A stretch of DNA of 64,000 nt, taken from NCBI GenBank assembly GCA_964517765.1, contig CAZFEN010000001.1, positions 34,345 through 98,344 on the forward strand, read 5' to 3'. Source of the DNA: an uncultured Actinomycetota bacterium (GTDB lineage Bacteria; Actinomycetota; Humimicrobiia; Humimicrobiales; Humimicrobiaceae). This document shows, one piece after another, positions 4,972-34,369 of the stretch. The translations under genes were made by a program, and so were the position numbers. Numbering within the stretch: position 1 is the first letter of the stretch; each line of letters opens with the position of its first letter. The notes below the pieces were generated by a model that worked only from the letters and a program-made list of their open reading frames with translations, was not told the origin of the DNA and ran no database searches.

Positions 4972-5973
4972 TTACATTATACTTTTTATCCATTCAGGTA
5001 GATATTGTATACCTACCGGTATGATAGATATAATTATAATTCCAATAGTAGTCCTTATAGTTTTAAAGTTCGTAGGCCAAATATTTAAAGAATTGATTCT
5101 TTTTTTATATAGAATCAACTTATCAATCTTTTCAAACTCAATTATATTAATCTCTTCTATATTTTTATCTAAAAAACTGTTATGTTCTTTCTGTATTCGA
5201 TAGTTCATTTCATCCAAAGCTTTTTTCTTTTCTAAAAAAAGTTTCTTCCTAATTGGAATTTCAGGTATTAGAAACATACTTATCATAATGATCGCTGAGA
5301 AAGAACAATAGCCTATTATTAATTTCCCCATAGGTAGAACCTTTGCAAATATTATGCTAGTAATACAAACAGATATATATATGCTTCCTATGATTGCAAC
5401 TTCATATGCAATGTTTCTTAAAAATATTATTGATATATTTTCTCTATACCACAACCCTACTTTCACTAGTCTCCCTAATCTTATAGAATATACAAAATAA
5501 GTTATTAGGGAATATAAAGAAAAACCTGTAATGAAATTTATTGAAAATAAAAATATAGATAACAATATAAGAAGTATTTTATTACCCTCCCAAGAACCTA
5601 ATACTTTAGGAGCAAGTCCAATAAGAGATCCATAAATAACCCCTGAAATGCACATTAATTTTAAATTAAAAATTTCTTTTAAAAATCTATCTGACATATT
5701 TCTTTTTTCTTTTATTTCTTTTCCAATTAATATAAATTTAAAGAACTCAAAAGAATTTTTTAAAACGTATTTGCCAATATTCAAGAGTCCCCATAGCAAA
5801 AATGCATTTGCACAAAACAGGAGTATAATAAACGTTGAATCTTTAATGTTTTTTGTAAAAAACCATTGTAAAAAAATATAAGATAATCCAACAATTATTG
5901 GTGCAATAATTAAAATTAGATGAATAGATTTTCTATCGAAAAAAAAATTATTATAAAAAATTTTATTTTTCAT
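4972..5973 (-). CDS. hypothetical polytopic membrane protein, encoded in an AT-rich islet
   Basis: 333-aa ORF with many TM segments; local GC about 20%. Confidence 0.45.
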   Translation of the reverse strand: MKNKIFYNNFFFDRKSIHLILIIAPIIVGLSYIFLQWFFTKNIKDSTFIILLFCANAFLLWGLLNIGKYVLKNSFEFFKFILIGKEIKEKRNMSDRFLKEIFNLKLMCISGVIYGSLIGLAPKVLGSWEGNKILLILLSIFLFSINFITGFSLYSLITYFVYSIRLGRLVKVGLWYRENISIIFLRNIAYEVAIIGSIYISVCITSIIFAKVLPMGKLIIGYCSFSAIIMISMFLIPEIPIRKKLFLEKKKALDEMNYRIQKEHNSFLDKNIEEINIIEFEKIDKLILYKKRINSLNIWPTNFKTIRTTIGIIIISIIPVGIQYLPEWIKSIM

Positions 5974-12860: not shown

Positions 12861-13143
12861 TTTAATACTTTGCCTTGATATTTTTATTAAGAATTCTTTT
12901 CTAAATTTAAAGATTTATTATGATAATTTTACCTTTAAATCAAATTTTATCAACAATCTCTTAATTCCGCAGCTTTTTCCTCCGGCAAAGTATCGTTTAA
13001 AAATTTACAGATAAATTATATTTTATGTTTAACACCACTAAACTTCCTTTCATTATTTTCTTTTTTAATACTGTTTATAGTTATTTTTATAATGGTAAAA
13101 TTAATTTATAATATATTGGATATTAAAAGACATTAAACTTCTT

Positions 13144-27979: not shown

Positions 27980-28321
27980 TTACAGTTGGCCGATAAGAAA
28001 TGAAATCAAAATATTTTCCAGTATCTTTTTTATTTCCAATAAGCTTGCAGTAACAATGATCGGTTTAGCCACAATCAAAATATCTAAATTATTGTAACTT
28101 TCTATTTCAACTTTTCTTAAAGCTTCTCTTAACACTCTTTTAATTCTATTTCTTAGAACGGCTCCGCCTATTTTTTTACTTACTCCTAATCCGATTCTTA
28201 CAGATCCACAAATTTCTTCTTTTTTGAATATATATAAAGTTAAATATTTATCCCTTTTACATAAACCTTCTTTTATTACTCTTGAAAAATCACTTTTTCT
28301 TTTAAGTGTTTCAAACTTGAT
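27980..28321 (-). CDS. rnpA: ribonuclease P protein component RnpA; no canonical start codon in frame (probable AUC start)
   Basis: Translation (I)KFETLKRKSDFSRVIKEG...GLGVSKKIGGAVLRNRIKRVLREAL aligns with B. subtilis RnpA. The frame contains no Met and follows directly after the rpmH TAA in the same frame. Confidence 0.65.
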   Translation of the reverse strand: MKFETLKRKSDFSRVIKEGLCKRDKYLTLYIFKKEEICGSVRIGLGVSKKIGGAVLRNRIKRVLREALRKVEIESYNNLDILIVAKPIIVTASLLEIKKILENILISFLIGQL

Positions 28322-28342
28322 ATTAGTCTTCCTTTTTCCTCT

Positions 28343-28477
28343 TTAAGCAGAAAGCTTTTTTCTTCCTTTTTTTCTCCTGCACGCAATTACAGCTCTGCCG
28401 GCTTTGGTTTCCATTCTTATCCTGAAGCCATGAACCTTTTTTCTTTTCCTTGCGTTCGGCTGAAATGTCCTTTTCAT
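28343..28477 (-). CDS. rpmH: 50S ribosomal protein L34 (below the ORF-track size cutoff)
   Basis: 44 aa [44 protein letters not shown] matches the bL34 consensus. Confidence 0.9.
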
Positions 28478-28520
28478 CTTTTACCCAATCTATATATTAT
28501 TGTTTTCAGTCAAGTAGTAG

Positions 28521-28549
28521 ATTATACATTTTAATTTTTCTAATATCAA
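28521..28549 (-). promoter_or_regulatory. sigma70-type promoter for rpmH (TTGATA-17-TATAAT on the minus strand)
   Basis: Hexamers read as reverse complement; about 40 nt upstream of the rpmH start. Confidence 0.5.
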
Positions 28550-28721
28550 GGTTGCCATATTTAAATAAAGTGTTCCTTTAAGCCTTTTTGTGTTTGTCTT
28601 TTCTTTTGAGTACATTATTTATTCAAACACCTGTTCTGGTTAAAGACCCTTCCTGAAAATTATATTTTTTTTATATATATTATGGTGCAATTTCTCATAG
28701 TATTTCAAAAATTTAAACAAC

Positions 28722-28862
28722 TTTTCAACAACTGTTGAAAAAATTGTTGAAAACTTAAAAAATCACACTAAATTATATGTCAAATGATTTTACTCCGAGG
28801 GATTTATCATACAATCTAGTAGCTTTTTCCTTGTTAAAATATTATTATTAATCTGTTGAAAA
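28722..28862. repeat. cluster of four 9-mers TTTTCAACA/TGTTGAAAA, including a perfect inverted repeat TTTTCAACA-AC-TGTTGAAAA; DnaA-box-like (TTATCCACA variant) or operator for the adjacent regulator
   Basis: Instances at 28722-28730, 28733-28741, 28745-28753, 28854-28862; related TT[GC]TCAACA 9-mers recur in the dnaA-dnaN intergenic. Confidence 0.45.
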
Positions 28863-28956
28863 CCTTAAGCTTCTGAAAAGAAAATGAAAAGCAATATCGT
28901 TGATTGATATGTTTTCTGTTAAATAAAACAATTCGCATTTAAAGTTGACATTAATA

Positions 28957-29811
28957 ATGCCTGACGAAAATACTAAACCAAATAATGCTGACGATTCCAA
29001 CAAAATCTATGGAAACATTGAAAAAATACCGGTCAGAATCGCAGTCTATGATAATATGCGGAGCATTCCAAGGATAGTGAATCTCAGCTATGATAATATT
29101 GCGGACTTCATTAATGAAACCACCCAAAAAACCTATAGTCTATCCCATGAGATTGGCGGGAGAATTCCTTATACAATAATAAAAGAGATAATAGAGAATC
29201 TTATACACGCAGATTTCAAAGAAGTTGTGATTACTGTGTTGGAAAGGGGAGACCATATAATCATAACGGACCAGGGACCGGGAATCGAAGACAAAGAAAA
29301 AGCTTTCCTACCGGGATATACTTCCGCTACGAGTAAAATGAAAGAATACATCAGGGGAGTGGGTTCGGGTTTTCCGATAGTAAAAGAAACTATAACTTTT
29401 TCCGGAGGATCTATCGATGTAAAAGACAATATAAAAAGGGGGACGGTAATATCTTTAAAACTTGGACAGCCGGAAAAGAGTGATAGCGTAAAGGATACGG
29501 AAATCAAGACAACCGGTGAGACGATACCTGTTATTCCCGACGAGGATAAAAAAACTCCGGCAGATGGCATAGACAAATTTGATCATAAAGTATTATCCGA
29601 CAGACAAAAGAAGATCCTTTTTGTGATCCTGGAACTGGAAGAAGCCGGGCCTTCTACAATAGCCAGTGAGCTGGGTTTTAGTCTCTCTACTTCATACCGG
29701 GAATTAATCTACCTGGAAAAGAACAAAATGCTTGCCTCCGGCAGCAACGGCAAGAGAAAATTATCTAAAAAAGGCTTAAAATACCTTGAATATTATTCAA
29801 ATACTATTTAA
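28957..29811 (+). CDS. GHKL/histidine-kinase-like ATPase domain fused to a C-terminal winged-helix DNA-binding domain; function unknown
   Basis: N-box EIIENLIHA, G1 DQGPGI, G2 GVGSGF; C-terminal KILFVILELEEAGPSTIASELGFSLSTSYRELIYLEKNKML. No SD; start at ATG 28957 (TTG 28945 and ATG 29056 are alternatives). Confidence 0.6.
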   Translation: MPDENTKPNNADDSNKIYGNIEKIPVRIAVYDNMRSIPRIVNLSYDNIADFINETTQKTYSLSHEIGGRIPYTIIKEIIENLIHADFKEVVITVLERGDHIIITDQGPGIEDKEKAFLPGYTSATSKMKEYIRGVGSGFPIVKETITFSGGSIDVKDNIKRGTVISLKLGQPEKSDSVKDTEIKTTGETIPVIPDEDKKTPADGIDKFDHKVLSDRQKKILFVILELEEAGPSTIASELGFSLSTSYRELIYLEKNKMLASGSNGKRKLSKKGLKYLEYYSNTI

Positions 29812-29823
29812 GATTAGAGTACT

Positions 29824-31185
29824 ATGTCGGACCTACAAAACATCTGGAAAAATACTCTCGAAGATATTAAAAACAATATTAATCTCCCTACATATAAAGC
29901 CTGGTTTGAACATATAACACCCCTTTCGTTAAAAAAAAACTGTTTAACGGTTTCAGTCGGCAGTAACTTCGCAAAAGAGTGGCTTGAGTCCAGATACTCT
30001 AATCTTCTATCCGAATCAATAAAAAGAGTGACCAACAATTCATGTAAAATAAAAATTGTTACTGCACCCGGAAGTTCCGAAAATACCAGCGGCAAATATG
30101 ATACCTATATTGGCGAAACCCTCGAAGAGGAAGGGTATCCCTTTAAACAAAACAAAAATTCTCTTTTCAATTCAAAGTACACTTTTGATACATTTATCGT
30201 TGGAAGCAGCAACAGGTTTGCCTGTACCGCCTCTCTTGCAGTCAGCGAGAATCCCGGCAAAGCTTATAATCCATTGTTTATTTACGGGGGAGTAGGATTG
30301 GGAAAGACGCATCTTCTGCATGCAATCGCACAATATACGATGCAGCTGCATCCCAATAAAACTATAAAATATGTTTCGGCCGAAAGATTTCTTAATGATT
30401 TTATTAATGCTCTCCGTTATAAAAACATCTTTTCTTTTAAAGAAAGCTATAGAAACAACGATATTTTGCTTGTCGATGATATACATTTTCTCGAGGATAA
30501 GGAGGCCAGCCAGGAAGAATTTTTTCATACATTTAACGCTCTTCATGATACCAATCGGCAGATAGTCCTCTCGAGCGACAGGGCGCCAAAAAATATTTCC
30601 ACTCTTGAGGAAAGACTCCGGTCCAGGTTTGAATGGGGCCTGGTAACAGATATCAAGCCGCCGGACCTTGAAACAAGACTGGCAATTTTAAAAAATTATT
30701 CTAAAAGAGAAAATATATCGGCCTCTGATGATATATTAAATTTAATTGCCGAAAAAATTACTTCTAACATCAGAGAGCTGGAAGGTTCCCTTACAAGAAT
30801 AGTCGCATTTGCTTCCCTTACCGATTCCAAGCCTGATTTAAACATGGCCAAAAACATACTAAAAGATATTTTACCCGATGACATAGAACACAAAATAAGT
30901 ATTCAAACAATTATTAAAGAAGTATCAAGATATTTCTCCATACCCATAAATGATATTATAAGTGCCAAGAGGAATAAATTCATATCACATGCGCGCCAGC
31001 TGGCAATGTATCTATCCAGAGAGCATACCAGCAGTTCTTTGCCCAGAATCGGAAAGTCTTTTGGGAACCGTGACCATTCAACTGTAATATACGCCGTCTC
31101 AAGAATCTCAAATCTTATAAATACCGATAAAACTGTCTACCTGCAGATTCAGGAAATTACAAACAAGATAAAGACGTCTACATAA
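29824..31185 (+). CDS. dnaA: chromosomal replication initiator DnaA
   Basis: 453 aa; AAA+ Walker [15 protein letters not shown], sensor motifs, C-terminal DNA-binding domain IV. Confidence 0.95.
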
Positions 31186-31321
31186 AACCTGACTGCCCAT
31201 GTTTAAAACCTGTTAAATAATAAAGAAAGTTCTTAGCAATCAGCGGCTTTTCTGGTTCAAAACTAACCATCTTCTTTTTTTTATATATTTCTTTTACGGC
31301 TTTGAACAGCTTTAAACCATA

Positions 31322-31470
31322 TTGTCAACAAGTATCATTGCGGGACAGGCCGCAATTTCACTGTCTTTTTTTACTCTTCCAACATTCTCAACATGTATTA
31401 TAACTATTACTGACTATTTAAATTAAACATTATATATAATAAAATATGTTTATATTTCAAACATTAAAAG
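31322..31470. promoter_or_regulatory. putative oriC segment: three same-orientation 9-mers TTGTCAACA / CTTCCAACA / TTCTCAACA followed by a very AT-rich tract (candidate DUE), between dnaA and dnaN
   Basis: Motifs at 31322-31330, 31375-31383, 31385-31393; AT-rich 31396-31470; a GCCGCAAT hairpin after the dnaA stop. Confidence 0.4.
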
Positions 31471-31486
31471 AAATTAGAGGGTTACA

Positions 31487-32596
31487 ATGAAATTTCAAAC
31501 TACAAGGACCGACCTTCTGGAAACTATTTTATTTGCCAGCAGAGCAATAAGTCCCAAAGCTTCATCGTTTATTTTGAATGGGATAATGCTTGATGCTGAA
31601 GAGGGCTTAACCGTATATAGTACCGACCTGGAGACAAGTATAAAATGTACAATGGAAGTAAAGATTCTTGAAAAAGGGAAAGCGGTGGTACCCGCAAGGA
31701 TTCTGGCGAATATATTAAAAAGCCTGAAAGAATCAAAAATAGAGCTGGAGCTGGATAAGGCAAAGAACCAGGTAAAAATTAGTTGCGAAAACGCTTTTTT
31801 TACATTAAACACACTATCTCTGGAAGAATACCCGGTTTTTCCCGAAACAAGGAAAGAAAATTATTTAAAGGTGAACCTGAACAAATTTAAGGACATGGTA
31901 TCAAAAGCAGAGAAAGCGGCATCTATGGATGAAAGCAGAGCAATCTTAACCGGAGTGCTTCTGGAGATCGGGGACGACATGTTGAGCATGGTAGCAACTG
32001 ACAGCTACAGGCTTGCTCTGGTTAAAGAAAAAATAGGCGGCGGAAGACAGCCGATAAAAGTCGTGGTACCTTCAAAAGTTCTCGATAATATTGTTAAAAG
32101 TGAATTTAAGGATGGAGATATCGAGATAAACATCGAAGAAAATCAGGCAAGTTTTTACATGGAAAGCGCCAGCAAGAAAAAGATTATAATGGTTTCAAGA
32201 TTGCTTTCCGGAAAATTTCCGGAATACAAACAGCTTATTCCTCAGAACATGAAGCACGACATAATAGTAGATAAGGAAAAAATGCTTGAGGTAGTAAAGA
32301 GGATTTCATCTATCTCGCAGGACAACATACCAATAAAGACCACTATCGATAAAGGTAAAATAACGGTATCTATGAATATCAGGGAAGTTGGAAGTTCCAG
32401 CGAGGATTTTGATGTTTCATATGGAGAAGAAAAAATGGAGATAGCCTTTAACCCCGAATTTTTAATCGACGGTATAAATATAATGGATGAGAAGAATATA
32501 ATATTCTCGATAGAGGAACCTCTTAAGCCTATTTTAATAAAATCTGAAAAAAACAAAGACTTGATTTATTTGCTTATGCCCATCAGGGTCTCCTAG
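31487..32596 (+). CDS. dnaN: DNA polymerase III beta sliding clamp
   Basis: 369 aa; three-domain clamp; follows dnaA. Confidence 0.9.
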   Translation: MKFQTTRTDLLETILFASRAISPKASSFILNGIMLDAEEGLTVYSTDLETSIKCTMEVKILEKGKAVVPARILANILKSLKESKIELELDKAKNQVKISCENAFFTLNTLSLEEYPVFPETRKENYLKVNLNKFKDMVSKAEKAASMDESRAILTGVLLEIGDDMLSMVATDSYRLALVKEKIGGGRQPIKVVVPSKVLDNIVKSEFKDGDIEINIEENQASFYMESASKKKIIMVSRLLSGKFPEYKQLIPQNMKHDIIVDKEKMLEVVKRISSISQDNIPIKTTIDKGKITVSMNIREVGSSSEDFDVSYGEEKMEIAFNPEFLIDGINIMDEKNIIFSIEEPLKPILIKSEKNKDLIYLLMPIRVS

Positions 32597-33568: not shown

Positions 33569-34369
33569 ATGTTGAAAAAAATAACAACAAAAGATCTTGT
33601 TGAAATGAAAAAGAAGGGCGAAAAAATAACAATGCTTACCGCATATGATTGTCTGATGGCATCGCAGCTGGACGAGTGCGGCATAGACTTGATACTGGTG
33701 GGAGATTCTGTGGGAAATGTTCTTCTGGGATATAAAAATACCATACCGGTTTCGATGGATGAAATGATCCATCACTGTAAAGCAGTCTGCCGCGGTGTGG
33801 AAAGGGCAATGGTGATAGGAGATATGCCATTTATGTCTTATCAGGCAAGTGTTGCCGGGGCGGTAAGGAATGCCGGAAGATTTTTAAAAGAAGCCGGAGC
33901 AGAAGCAGTAAAACTGGAAGGCGGGAAAGAAATCCTTTTGACCATAAATAAAATCGTCGATTCAGGGATTCCGGTAATGGGACATCTGGGATTTACTCCG
34001 CAATCTGTTTATAAGTTCGGCGGTTATGGCGTCAGAGGAAAAGACGAAGAGCAGGCTAAAAAGATGATAGAAGATGCCAGTGCGCTTGAGGAAGCCGGAG
34101 TATTTTCGATAGTGTTGGAGAAGATTCCAGCAGAGCTTGCAAAAAAGATAACACGAAAGATCAGCGTTCCCACGATAGGAATAGGAGCAGGGGTAAACTG
34201 CGACGGACAGGTGCTCGTAACACATGATATGCTTGGATGTTTTGAAAAATTTAAACCAAAATTTTCAAAAAGGTATGCTGAATTGGGAATAGAAATGAAG
34301 AAATGCTACACGAAATATATAGAAGAAGTAAAAAATAAGAAATTTCCCTCAGACGAACATTCCTATTAG
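33569..34369 (+). CDS. panB: 3-methyl-2-oxobutanoate hydroxymethyltransferase (ketopantoate hydroxymethyltransferase)
   Basis: 266 aa; TAYD and LVGDSVG motifs. Confidence 0.9.
   Translation: MLKKITTKDLVEMKKKGEKITMLTAYDCLMASQLDECGIDLILVGDSVGNVLLGYKNTIPVSMDEMIHHCKAVCRGVERAMVIGDMPFMSYQASVAGAVRNAGRFLKEAGAEAVKLEGGKEILLTINKIVDSGIPVMGHLGFTPQSVYKFGGYGVRGKDEEQAKKMIEDASALEEAGVFSIVLEKIPAELAKKITRKISVPTIGIGAGVNCDGQVLVTHDMLGCFEKFKPKFSKRYAELGIEMKKCYTKYIEEVKNKKFPSDEHSY

Follow-up and report, generated by a model that had tools for sequence, protein, structure and literature searches.

A conserved cluster of predicted DnaA boxes upstream of a HATPase-wHTH gene and dnaA in an uncultured low-GC lineage of Actinomycetota

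The stretch of DNA analyzed here (64,000 nt; hereafter, the window) contains a run of genes on the (−) strand, mnmE, jag, yidC, yidD, rnpA, and rpmH (28343-28477), followed by a 479-bp spacer at which the gene strand switches. On the (+) strand, the spacer is followed by a gene that we call X (28957-29811), which encodes a 284-aa protein with a HATPase_c (GHKL ATPase) domain and a C-terminal wHTH-like domain, and by dnaA (29824-31185), whose product carries the recognition-helix signature RDHSTVIYA; dnaN (31487-32596) comes after a further spacer of 301 bp. Because the gap between X and dnaA is only 12 bp and a scan of the spacer region (28300-29100) found no terminator-like site, these two genes are suggested to form one operon, of which X is presumably the first gene. 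A probable rpmH promoter of the near-consensus sigma-70 type (TTGATA-17-TATAAT, 11/12 match) lies on the (−) strand at 28521-28549 and bounds the dnaA-side regulatory DNA on its left. As a separate observation on this gene block, the rnpA frame (~27980-28340, [−] strand) is intact over ~115 codons and runs on in-frame right after the rpmH stop codon. No ATG, GTG, or TTG is located close to the 5′ end of this frame, and in most relatives the products predicted by gene callers are only 39-72 aa long, which points to an atypical start codon or to coupling with rpmH.

The spacer between rpmH and X holds four exact copies of a single 9-mer, which we number as predicted DnaA boxes 1 to 4. Box 1 is TTTTCAACA at 28722-28730 on the (+) strand, while boxes 2 (28733-28741), 3 (28745-28753), and 4 (28854-28862) lie on the (−) strand and read TGTTGAAAA on the (+) strand, box 3 being followed by a conserved C and box 4 likewise by a C. 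An earlier examination of the letters alone (the sequence-only reading) had reported these four copies starting at 28722, 28733, 28745, and 28854, and had described the first two as a perfect inverted repeat; exact searches confirmed all four coordinates, and boxes 1 and 2 indeed stand head-to-head across a 2-bp spacer as a perfect 9-2-9 inverted repeat, TTTTCAACA-AC-TGTTGAAAA. Box 3 follows box 2 after a 3-bp spacer (12 bp from start to start), such that positions 28719-28756 read AAC TTTTCAACA AC TGTTGAAAA AAT TGTTGAAAA CTT. Farther along, 109 bp after box 3, comes box 4, which precedes the ATG of X by 94 bp. In total, the four copies fall within 141 bp, at 94-235 bp upstream of X; given the layout of rpmH, spacer, HATPase-wHTH gene, and dnaA, it is the HATPase-wHTH gene that the cluster precedes.

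We found that this cluster is real, non-random, and conserved. Specifically, TGTTGAAAA is the commonest 9-mer of the 479-bp spacer, and in 20,000 shuffles of the spacer that preserved its dinucleotides, four copies never arose (the maximum was two). Across the whole window, the exact 9-mer was observed 5 times versus 1.59 expected, and the fifth copy, the only one besides boxes 1 to 4 recovered by exact search in the 64 kb, starts at 33570, where it forms the beginning of a coding sequence (ATG-TTG-AAA-AAA). The sequence-only reading had named an equal frequency of the 9-mer in AT-rich intergenic DNA as the outcome that would speak against it. Within the window, this was not the case, because the remaining intergenic DNA (~6.2-6.7 kb, GC 0.25) contains 0 exact copies and a single TGTTGANAA, compared with 4 exact copies and 6 TGTTGANAA in the 780 bp flanking the X-dnaA operon. 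The density of TGTTGANAA beside X-dnaA is thus ~48-fold above that in the other, equally AT-rich intergenic DNA of the window, as judged from a crude gene map of the 64 kb. The sole non-coding TGTTGANAA outside the dnaA region is a lone TTATCAACA at 12947-12955, in the intergenic spacer 12861-13143, and its presence there is compatible with chance.

As also stated in the sequence-only reading, the 9-mer is a two-mismatch variant of the classical DnaA box: TTTTCAACA differs from TTATCCACA at two positions and has 0 mismatches to the consensus of Mollicutes, 5′-TT(T/A)TC(C/A)ACA-3′ (PMC3322544, Table 2). Allowing ≤1 mismatch to TTATCCACA, we detected no box in either the rpmH-X spacer or the dnaA-dnaN spacer.

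For comparison among relatives, we used eight contigs found via homologues of X (67-90% protein identity), which together with the window gave nine loci; the whole gene order is common to all eight. An alignment of the rpmH-X spacer across the nine loci (alignment A1) had a mean column identity of 75%. Against this background, boxes 2 and 3 are invariant in 9/9 loci while their flanks diverge, and box 4 reads TGTTGA[A/T]AAC in all nine, with the variant TGTTGATAA being equal to TTATCAACA. Box 1 is TTTTCAACA in five of the nine loci and TTTTCCACA in the other four (L089-L092), the two forms differing at position 6 (A vs C). With TTTTCCACA as box 1, the palindrome is lost with no compensating change, and the box comes closer to the canonical sequence, which argues against a dimeric operator or a hairpin and for DnaA. 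The rpmH promoter stretch is kept in seven of the nine loci and has diverged in L090 and L091.

Alignment A1 also revealed four islands that are invariant or nearly so across the nine loci and are not DnaA-box-like. These comprise (i) the invariant element TCAAACA-CC-TGTTCT at 28623-28637, with the core AACA-NN-TGTT, which may represent two weak boxes or the site of a different protein; (ii) TAGTAGCTTTTT at 28817-28828; (iii) the near-invariant AT-rich block TTAAAATATTATTATTAAT at 28834-28852, directly left of box 4, which could be a promoter −10 region, a site for X, or a second unwinding or trio-like stretch; and (iv) TGAAAAG-N4-TGAAAAG at 28874-28891. Taken as a group, the islands could belong to a promoter, be bound by X, or provide a second stretch for unwinding. 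Candidate −10 elements flank the boxes as well (TATGGT at 28681-28686 and TATTAT within 28840-28848).

The spacer between dnaA and dnaN, aligned in the same way (alignment A2), carries further box-like sequences. On the (−) strand at 31200-31219, there are two conserved weak boxes, TGTTTAAAA and TGTTAAATA, placed 11 bp apart. The related 9-mers that the sequence-only reading had noticed in this spacer are present: TTGTCAACA, a predicted DnaA box on the (+) strand at 31322-31330, and TTCTCAACA, which starts at 31385. At the position of the former, the eight relatives split evenly between TTATCAACA and TT[A/T]TTAACA (four each). The latter abuts CTTCCAACA, and the two form predicted tandem boxes (31376-31393, [+] strand) at the box-6/box-7 position of the basal unwinding system (BUS). 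Four nucleotides (TGTA) after the proximal box, a putative DnaA-trio array, TTA TAA CTA TTA CTG, extends over 31398-31412 on the (+) strand (bound strand, 3′-AAT ATT GAT AAT GAC-5′); the trios are nearly invariant in relatives (TTA TAA CTA TTA CT[A/G]), and the array agrees with the published BUS search rule (PMC8287927). Next to the trios lies a candidate DNA unwinding element, TATATATAATAAAATATGTTTATATTT (31413-31470), which is AT-rich and almost invariant.

The architecture and spacing of these tandem boxes, and their orientation with respect to dnaA and dnaN, are shared with Bacillota control loci, examples of which read TTATCCACATATCCACA-AGAC-CTACTACTATTACTA and TTATCCACA-TATCCACA-AGAC-CTA CTA CTA TTA CTA followed by AT-rich DNA. 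In the window, the tandem-box slots before the trios and the AT-rich block are filled by xxxTCAACA, i.e., the same motif as in the upstream cluster; therefore, the motif sits where DnaA has to bind in a BUS-like architecture. The base composition is consistent with an origin at this place. The GC content is 0.16 at 31400-31499, and the cumulative GC-skew minimum was found within the 64-kb window at 30-32 kb on a coarse scale and at 31450-31550 at 100-nt resolution, such that the local minima of GC and GC skew both lie at about 31.4-31.55 kb. The layout of a bipartite oriC is present, with the upstream cluster at 28722-28862 and the downstream boxes, trios, and AT-rich element at 31200-31470.

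Does the double box accompany dnaA outside this lineage? A metagenome scan with the pattern TGTTGAAAA-N3-TGTTGAAAA returned at least 120 stretches, and most of the matches listed were 12-nt coding repeats (e.g., P-V-E-K) or chance matches. At least six stretches, however, have the double box within ~450 bp of dnaA, versus ~0.1 expected by a rough estimate. Among the matches listed near dnaA, one (L183) belongs to the same lineage and five (L099, L103, L146, L170, and L175) to other lineages, with DnaA proteins 33-41% identical to that of the window and GC contents of 0.27-0.60. All five have dense TTTTCAACA clusters beside dnaA, and no homologue of X was detected on their contigs (tblastn, E ≤ 1e−5). 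The L170 stretch contains a full box-trio module, TTTTCAACC-ATTTCAACA-CACT-CTA CTA CTA ATA CTA. Unwinding modules with TTTTCAACA-type tandem boxes were seen in L037 at 5380-5440 (a Tissierellales MAG) and on the reverse complement of L170 at ~1890-1930 (a metagenomic lineage), and it follows from these two modules that boxes with A at position 6 (A6 boxes) at the unwinding module are widespread in AT-rich bacteria. In very AT-rich contigs (L096, L098, L135, L141, and L144), the double-box matches are tandem coding repeats unrelated to origins, one example being CCTGTTGAAAAA repeated 11 times (P-V-E-K).

The sequence-only reading had left a choice between DnaA boxes of this lineage and operators of the adjacent wHTH protein, and the results summarized above favor the former: the 9-mers are conserved in eight relatives, box 1 has become TTTTCCACA in four of these relatives, the tandem boxes downstream of dnaA are built from the same motif, and the double box stands beside dnaA in five lineages that lack X. 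We consider it probable, at roughly 0.85, that the four 9-mers are high-affinity DnaA boxes of low-GC Ca. Humimicrobiaceae/Hydromicrobium, located at the chromosome origin. The predicted lineage consensus, TT(T/n)T(C/t)AACA, is an A-for-C variant at position 6 of TTATCCACA. This assignment draws on enrichment, conservation, the downstream unwinding architecture, the recurrence of the motif beside dnaA in other lineages, and its agreement with a published consensus; from it, we infer physical DnaA binding, cooperativity, repression, and looping.

In mechanistic terms, each box would be bound by the helix-turn-helix of DnaA domain IV, and the 2-bp and 3-bp spacers of boxes 1 to 3 may let neighboring DnaA molecules bind cooperatively, with box 4 placed ~10 helical turns farther, beside the invariant AT-rich block. 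The cluster occupies the only plausible promoter region of the putative X-dnaA operon, no other non-coding DNA being able to contain its promoter. Cooperative binding of DnaA upstream of this operon is likely to serve autoregulation and/or as the left half of a bipartite origin. Judging from the position of the predicted boxes alone, autoregulation of X-dnaA is the most likely role, in which DnaA occupancy at the cluster would throttle transcription of its own gene. In addition, the cluster may form the part of a bipartite origin that lies upstream of dnaA, an arrangement found in Bacillus, Helicobacter, and Mollicutes; the predicted unwinding half (tandem boxes, DnaA-trios, and AT-rich element) would then lie 2.6 kb away in the dnaA-dnaN spacer.

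Three other explanations of the repeats deserve consideration. The perfect dyad TTTTCAACA-AC-TGTTGAAAA in the window and four relatives, the C-terminal wHTH-like domain of X directly downstream, and the tendency of autoregulated repressors to bind their own promoter would all fit a dimer of X that recognizes the 9-2-9 palindrome plus half-sites and regulates the X-dnaA operon. Nevertheless, the dyad is not maintained: in L089-L092 (4/9 loci), the left arm is TTTTCCACA and the right arm has no compensating change, and boxes 3 and 4 are solitary and asymmetric. Moreover, the same motif occupies the box slots of the dnaA-dnaN unwinding module, the 9-mer fits the published DnaA-box consensus (PMC3322544), and the double box adjoins dnaA in the five lineages without an X homologue, so the motif tracks dnaA rather than the wHTH gene and does not co-occur with the proposed regulator. 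We therefore regard the operator alternative offered by the sequence-only reading as very unlikely. A purely structural role of the inverted repeat, as an RNA hairpin in the 5′ leader or a DNA cruciform, is the least likely of the three. The arms can pair over 9 bp, as can box 1 with box 3, and weak hairpin-type Rfam matches (miRNA precursor models, E 0.04-0.26) reflect this pairing potential, but a 2-nt loop is sterically impossible, no Rfam family scored above threshold, the scan of 28300-29100 gave no terminator-like site, the pair is broken in four relatives with neither a compensatory change nor covariation among the nine loci, and neither box 4 nor the boxes between dnaA and dnaN have a partner to pair with.

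The remaining explanation, which we rate as slightly less probable than the operator, holds that the repeats are stacked TTGAAA −35 hexamers of divergent or tandem promoters for rpmH and X-dnaA. Indeed, TTGAAA occurs in every box, and 28300-29100 contains 14 promoter-like sites compared with 3.6 in shuffles, several of which use a box as the −35 element. Yet conservation covers the full 9-10 nt, including TGT before TTGAAA and C after it, i.e., more than a hexamer; the box 1 variant TGTGGAAAA lacks TTGAAA and is nonetheless tolerated; and the dnaA-dnaN boxes TGTTGAGAA, TGTTGACAA, and TGTTGGAAG are likewise without it. In addition, the candidate −10 partners are not conserved, and a well-conserved promoter for rpmH is already available at 28521-28549. 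Because each box contains TTGAAA, a good −35 hexamer, part of the conservation of the predicted DnaA boxes could still be promoter-related. Other known motifs were also considered: the Spo0A box (TGTCGAA) was rejected, as the window comes from what we take to be a non-sporulating actinobacterial lineage and the motif tracks dnaA in unrelated phyla, and parS and the CodY box were rejected for want of a match.

We also examined the part of DnaA that would read the boxes (recognition-helix codons at 31054-31107 of the window). In E. coli, the base-contacting residues are R399, P423, D433, H434, T435, and H439 (PMC2533591, PMC7561715). Four of these six contacts (R, P, D, and H) are kept in the DnaA of the window, with T435 replaced by Ser and H439 by Tyr (RDHSTVIYA); the M. 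tuberculosis DnaA chain in the alignment also has Tyr at the H439 position. Since T435S and H439Y affect two of the six contacts, the classical specificity is not guaranteed.

A DnaA search of genome contigs yielded matches that were 40-54% identical, with no close relative among them, and these served as the control set. Ser435 is present in all five other-lineage dnaA loci among the double-box matches listed and in the A6-rich control loci L037 and L078. On the other hand, Ser435 is also found with canonical CCACA boxes, in Salinicoccus (L023) and in high-GC Chloroflexota loci, and lineages with T435 (L011, L061, and L064) carry TTTTCAACA or TTATCAACA at the unwinding module, L061 being all-A6. 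T435S is, thus, neither necessary nor sufficient for the A6 box in the control set, and we rejected it as the determinant and keep it only as a lead. T435S correlates weakly with the A6 box type: in the unbiased low-GC set, the comparison of Ser435 with A6 gave a marginal Mann-Whitney p of 0.04 (n = 5 vs 29), uncorrected for phylogeny. AT-richness seems to be the main driver of A6 boxes.

The statement of the sequence-only reading that TTATCAACA-type boxes are known in some low-GC lineages was borne out by the literature (PMC3322544, PMC1888806, PMC2671203). In Lawsonia intracellularis, the motif ttttcaaca has been used (PMC2671203), and the box consensus of Thermoanaerobacter tengcongensis, TTATCNACA, allows A at position 6 (PMC1888806). 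For the latter organism, the pair TGTTGATAA-GCC-TGTGGATAA, with a 3-bp spacer, was bound cooperatively by DnaA at 8 nM in EMSA (PMC1888806). With these matches in Mollicutes, T. tengcongensis, and Lawsonia, the type of box motif is already known.

Compared with the Mollicutes, both TTTTCAACA and the TTTTCCACA of relatives match the consensus exactly, and boxes stand on both sides of dnaA in an AT-rich genome; the host here, in contrast, is a low-GC member of the Actinomycetota, all recognizable boxes in the window are of the A6 form, and one exact 9-mer occurs four times. Cultured Actinomycetota relatives use TT(G/C)TCCACA-type boxes. With T. tengcongensis, the locus shares A at position 6 and the 3-bp box spacing seen between boxes 2 and 3, and an autoregulatory role has been proposed in that organism for a cluster overlapping the dnaA promoter region (PMC1888806). 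The T. tengcongensis origin, however, lies wholly upstream of dnaA, whereas the predicted unwinding module here is in the dnaA-dnaN spacer, and the extra gene X stands between the upstream cluster and dnaA.

As in the bipartite oriC and BUS of the Bacillus subtilis type (PMC6669920, PMC8287927), dnaA is flanked by box clusters, and on its downstream side tandem boxes are followed by a 4-nt gap, trios of the form [C/T]TA, and AT-rich DNA, all oriented as in the Bacillota controls. The differences are that the boxes are AACA-type, that the second trio (TAA) deviates, and that the module is predicted here from its sequence. The insertion of X places the upstream and downstream clusters 2.6 kb apart. 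DnaA has been described as regulating its own promoter in E. coli, B. subtilis, Streptomyces, and Mycobacterium (PMC2533591), and the locus is like these systems in having a cluster of putatively strong boxes where the promoter or leader of the dnaA-containing transcription unit would lie, but the first gene of this unit is X, not dnaA.

With a predicted box consensus, an upstream cluster, and a downstream module of boxes, trios, and AT-rich DNA, the probable origin of an uncultured low-GC class of actinobacteria can be annotated in usable form. For origin-finding programs tuned to TTATCCACA, neither spacer would contain a box with ≤1 mismatch. The locus adds one more lineage with A at box position 6 and lends support to the idea that the boxes of AT-rich genomes drift toward TT(T/A)TCAACA. 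Our understanding of initiation is unchanged, the box variant being known and the lineage newly examined, and any wider potential is limited to the weak Ser435 correlation and the HATPase-wHTH gene ahead of dnaA. A combined proposal built on these two, in which Ser435 would act as a specificity switch favoring TTTTCAACA over TTATCCACA and X would be a lineage-specific, ATP-dependent regulator of initiation, appears doubtful to us.

In all loci of the lineage that we examined, gene X lies 12 bp ahead of dnaA. X has over 1,500 homologues and belongs to no curated family; sources name homologues of X as Candidatus Humimicrobiaceae/Hydromicrobium, Actinomycetota. The HATPase_c domain spans residues 72-170, and the C-terminal region is wHTH-like. 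An AlphaFold2 model based on a 24-sequence alignment was poor (mean pLDDT of 42), and a PDB profile search returned distant histidine-kinase and MutL ATPase domains and nothing else. X may work together with dnaA or regulate it in a lineage-specific manner, and it could play a role in initiation via the TCAAACA-CC-TGTTCT element, the TGAAAAG repeats, and the AT-rich block beside box 4.
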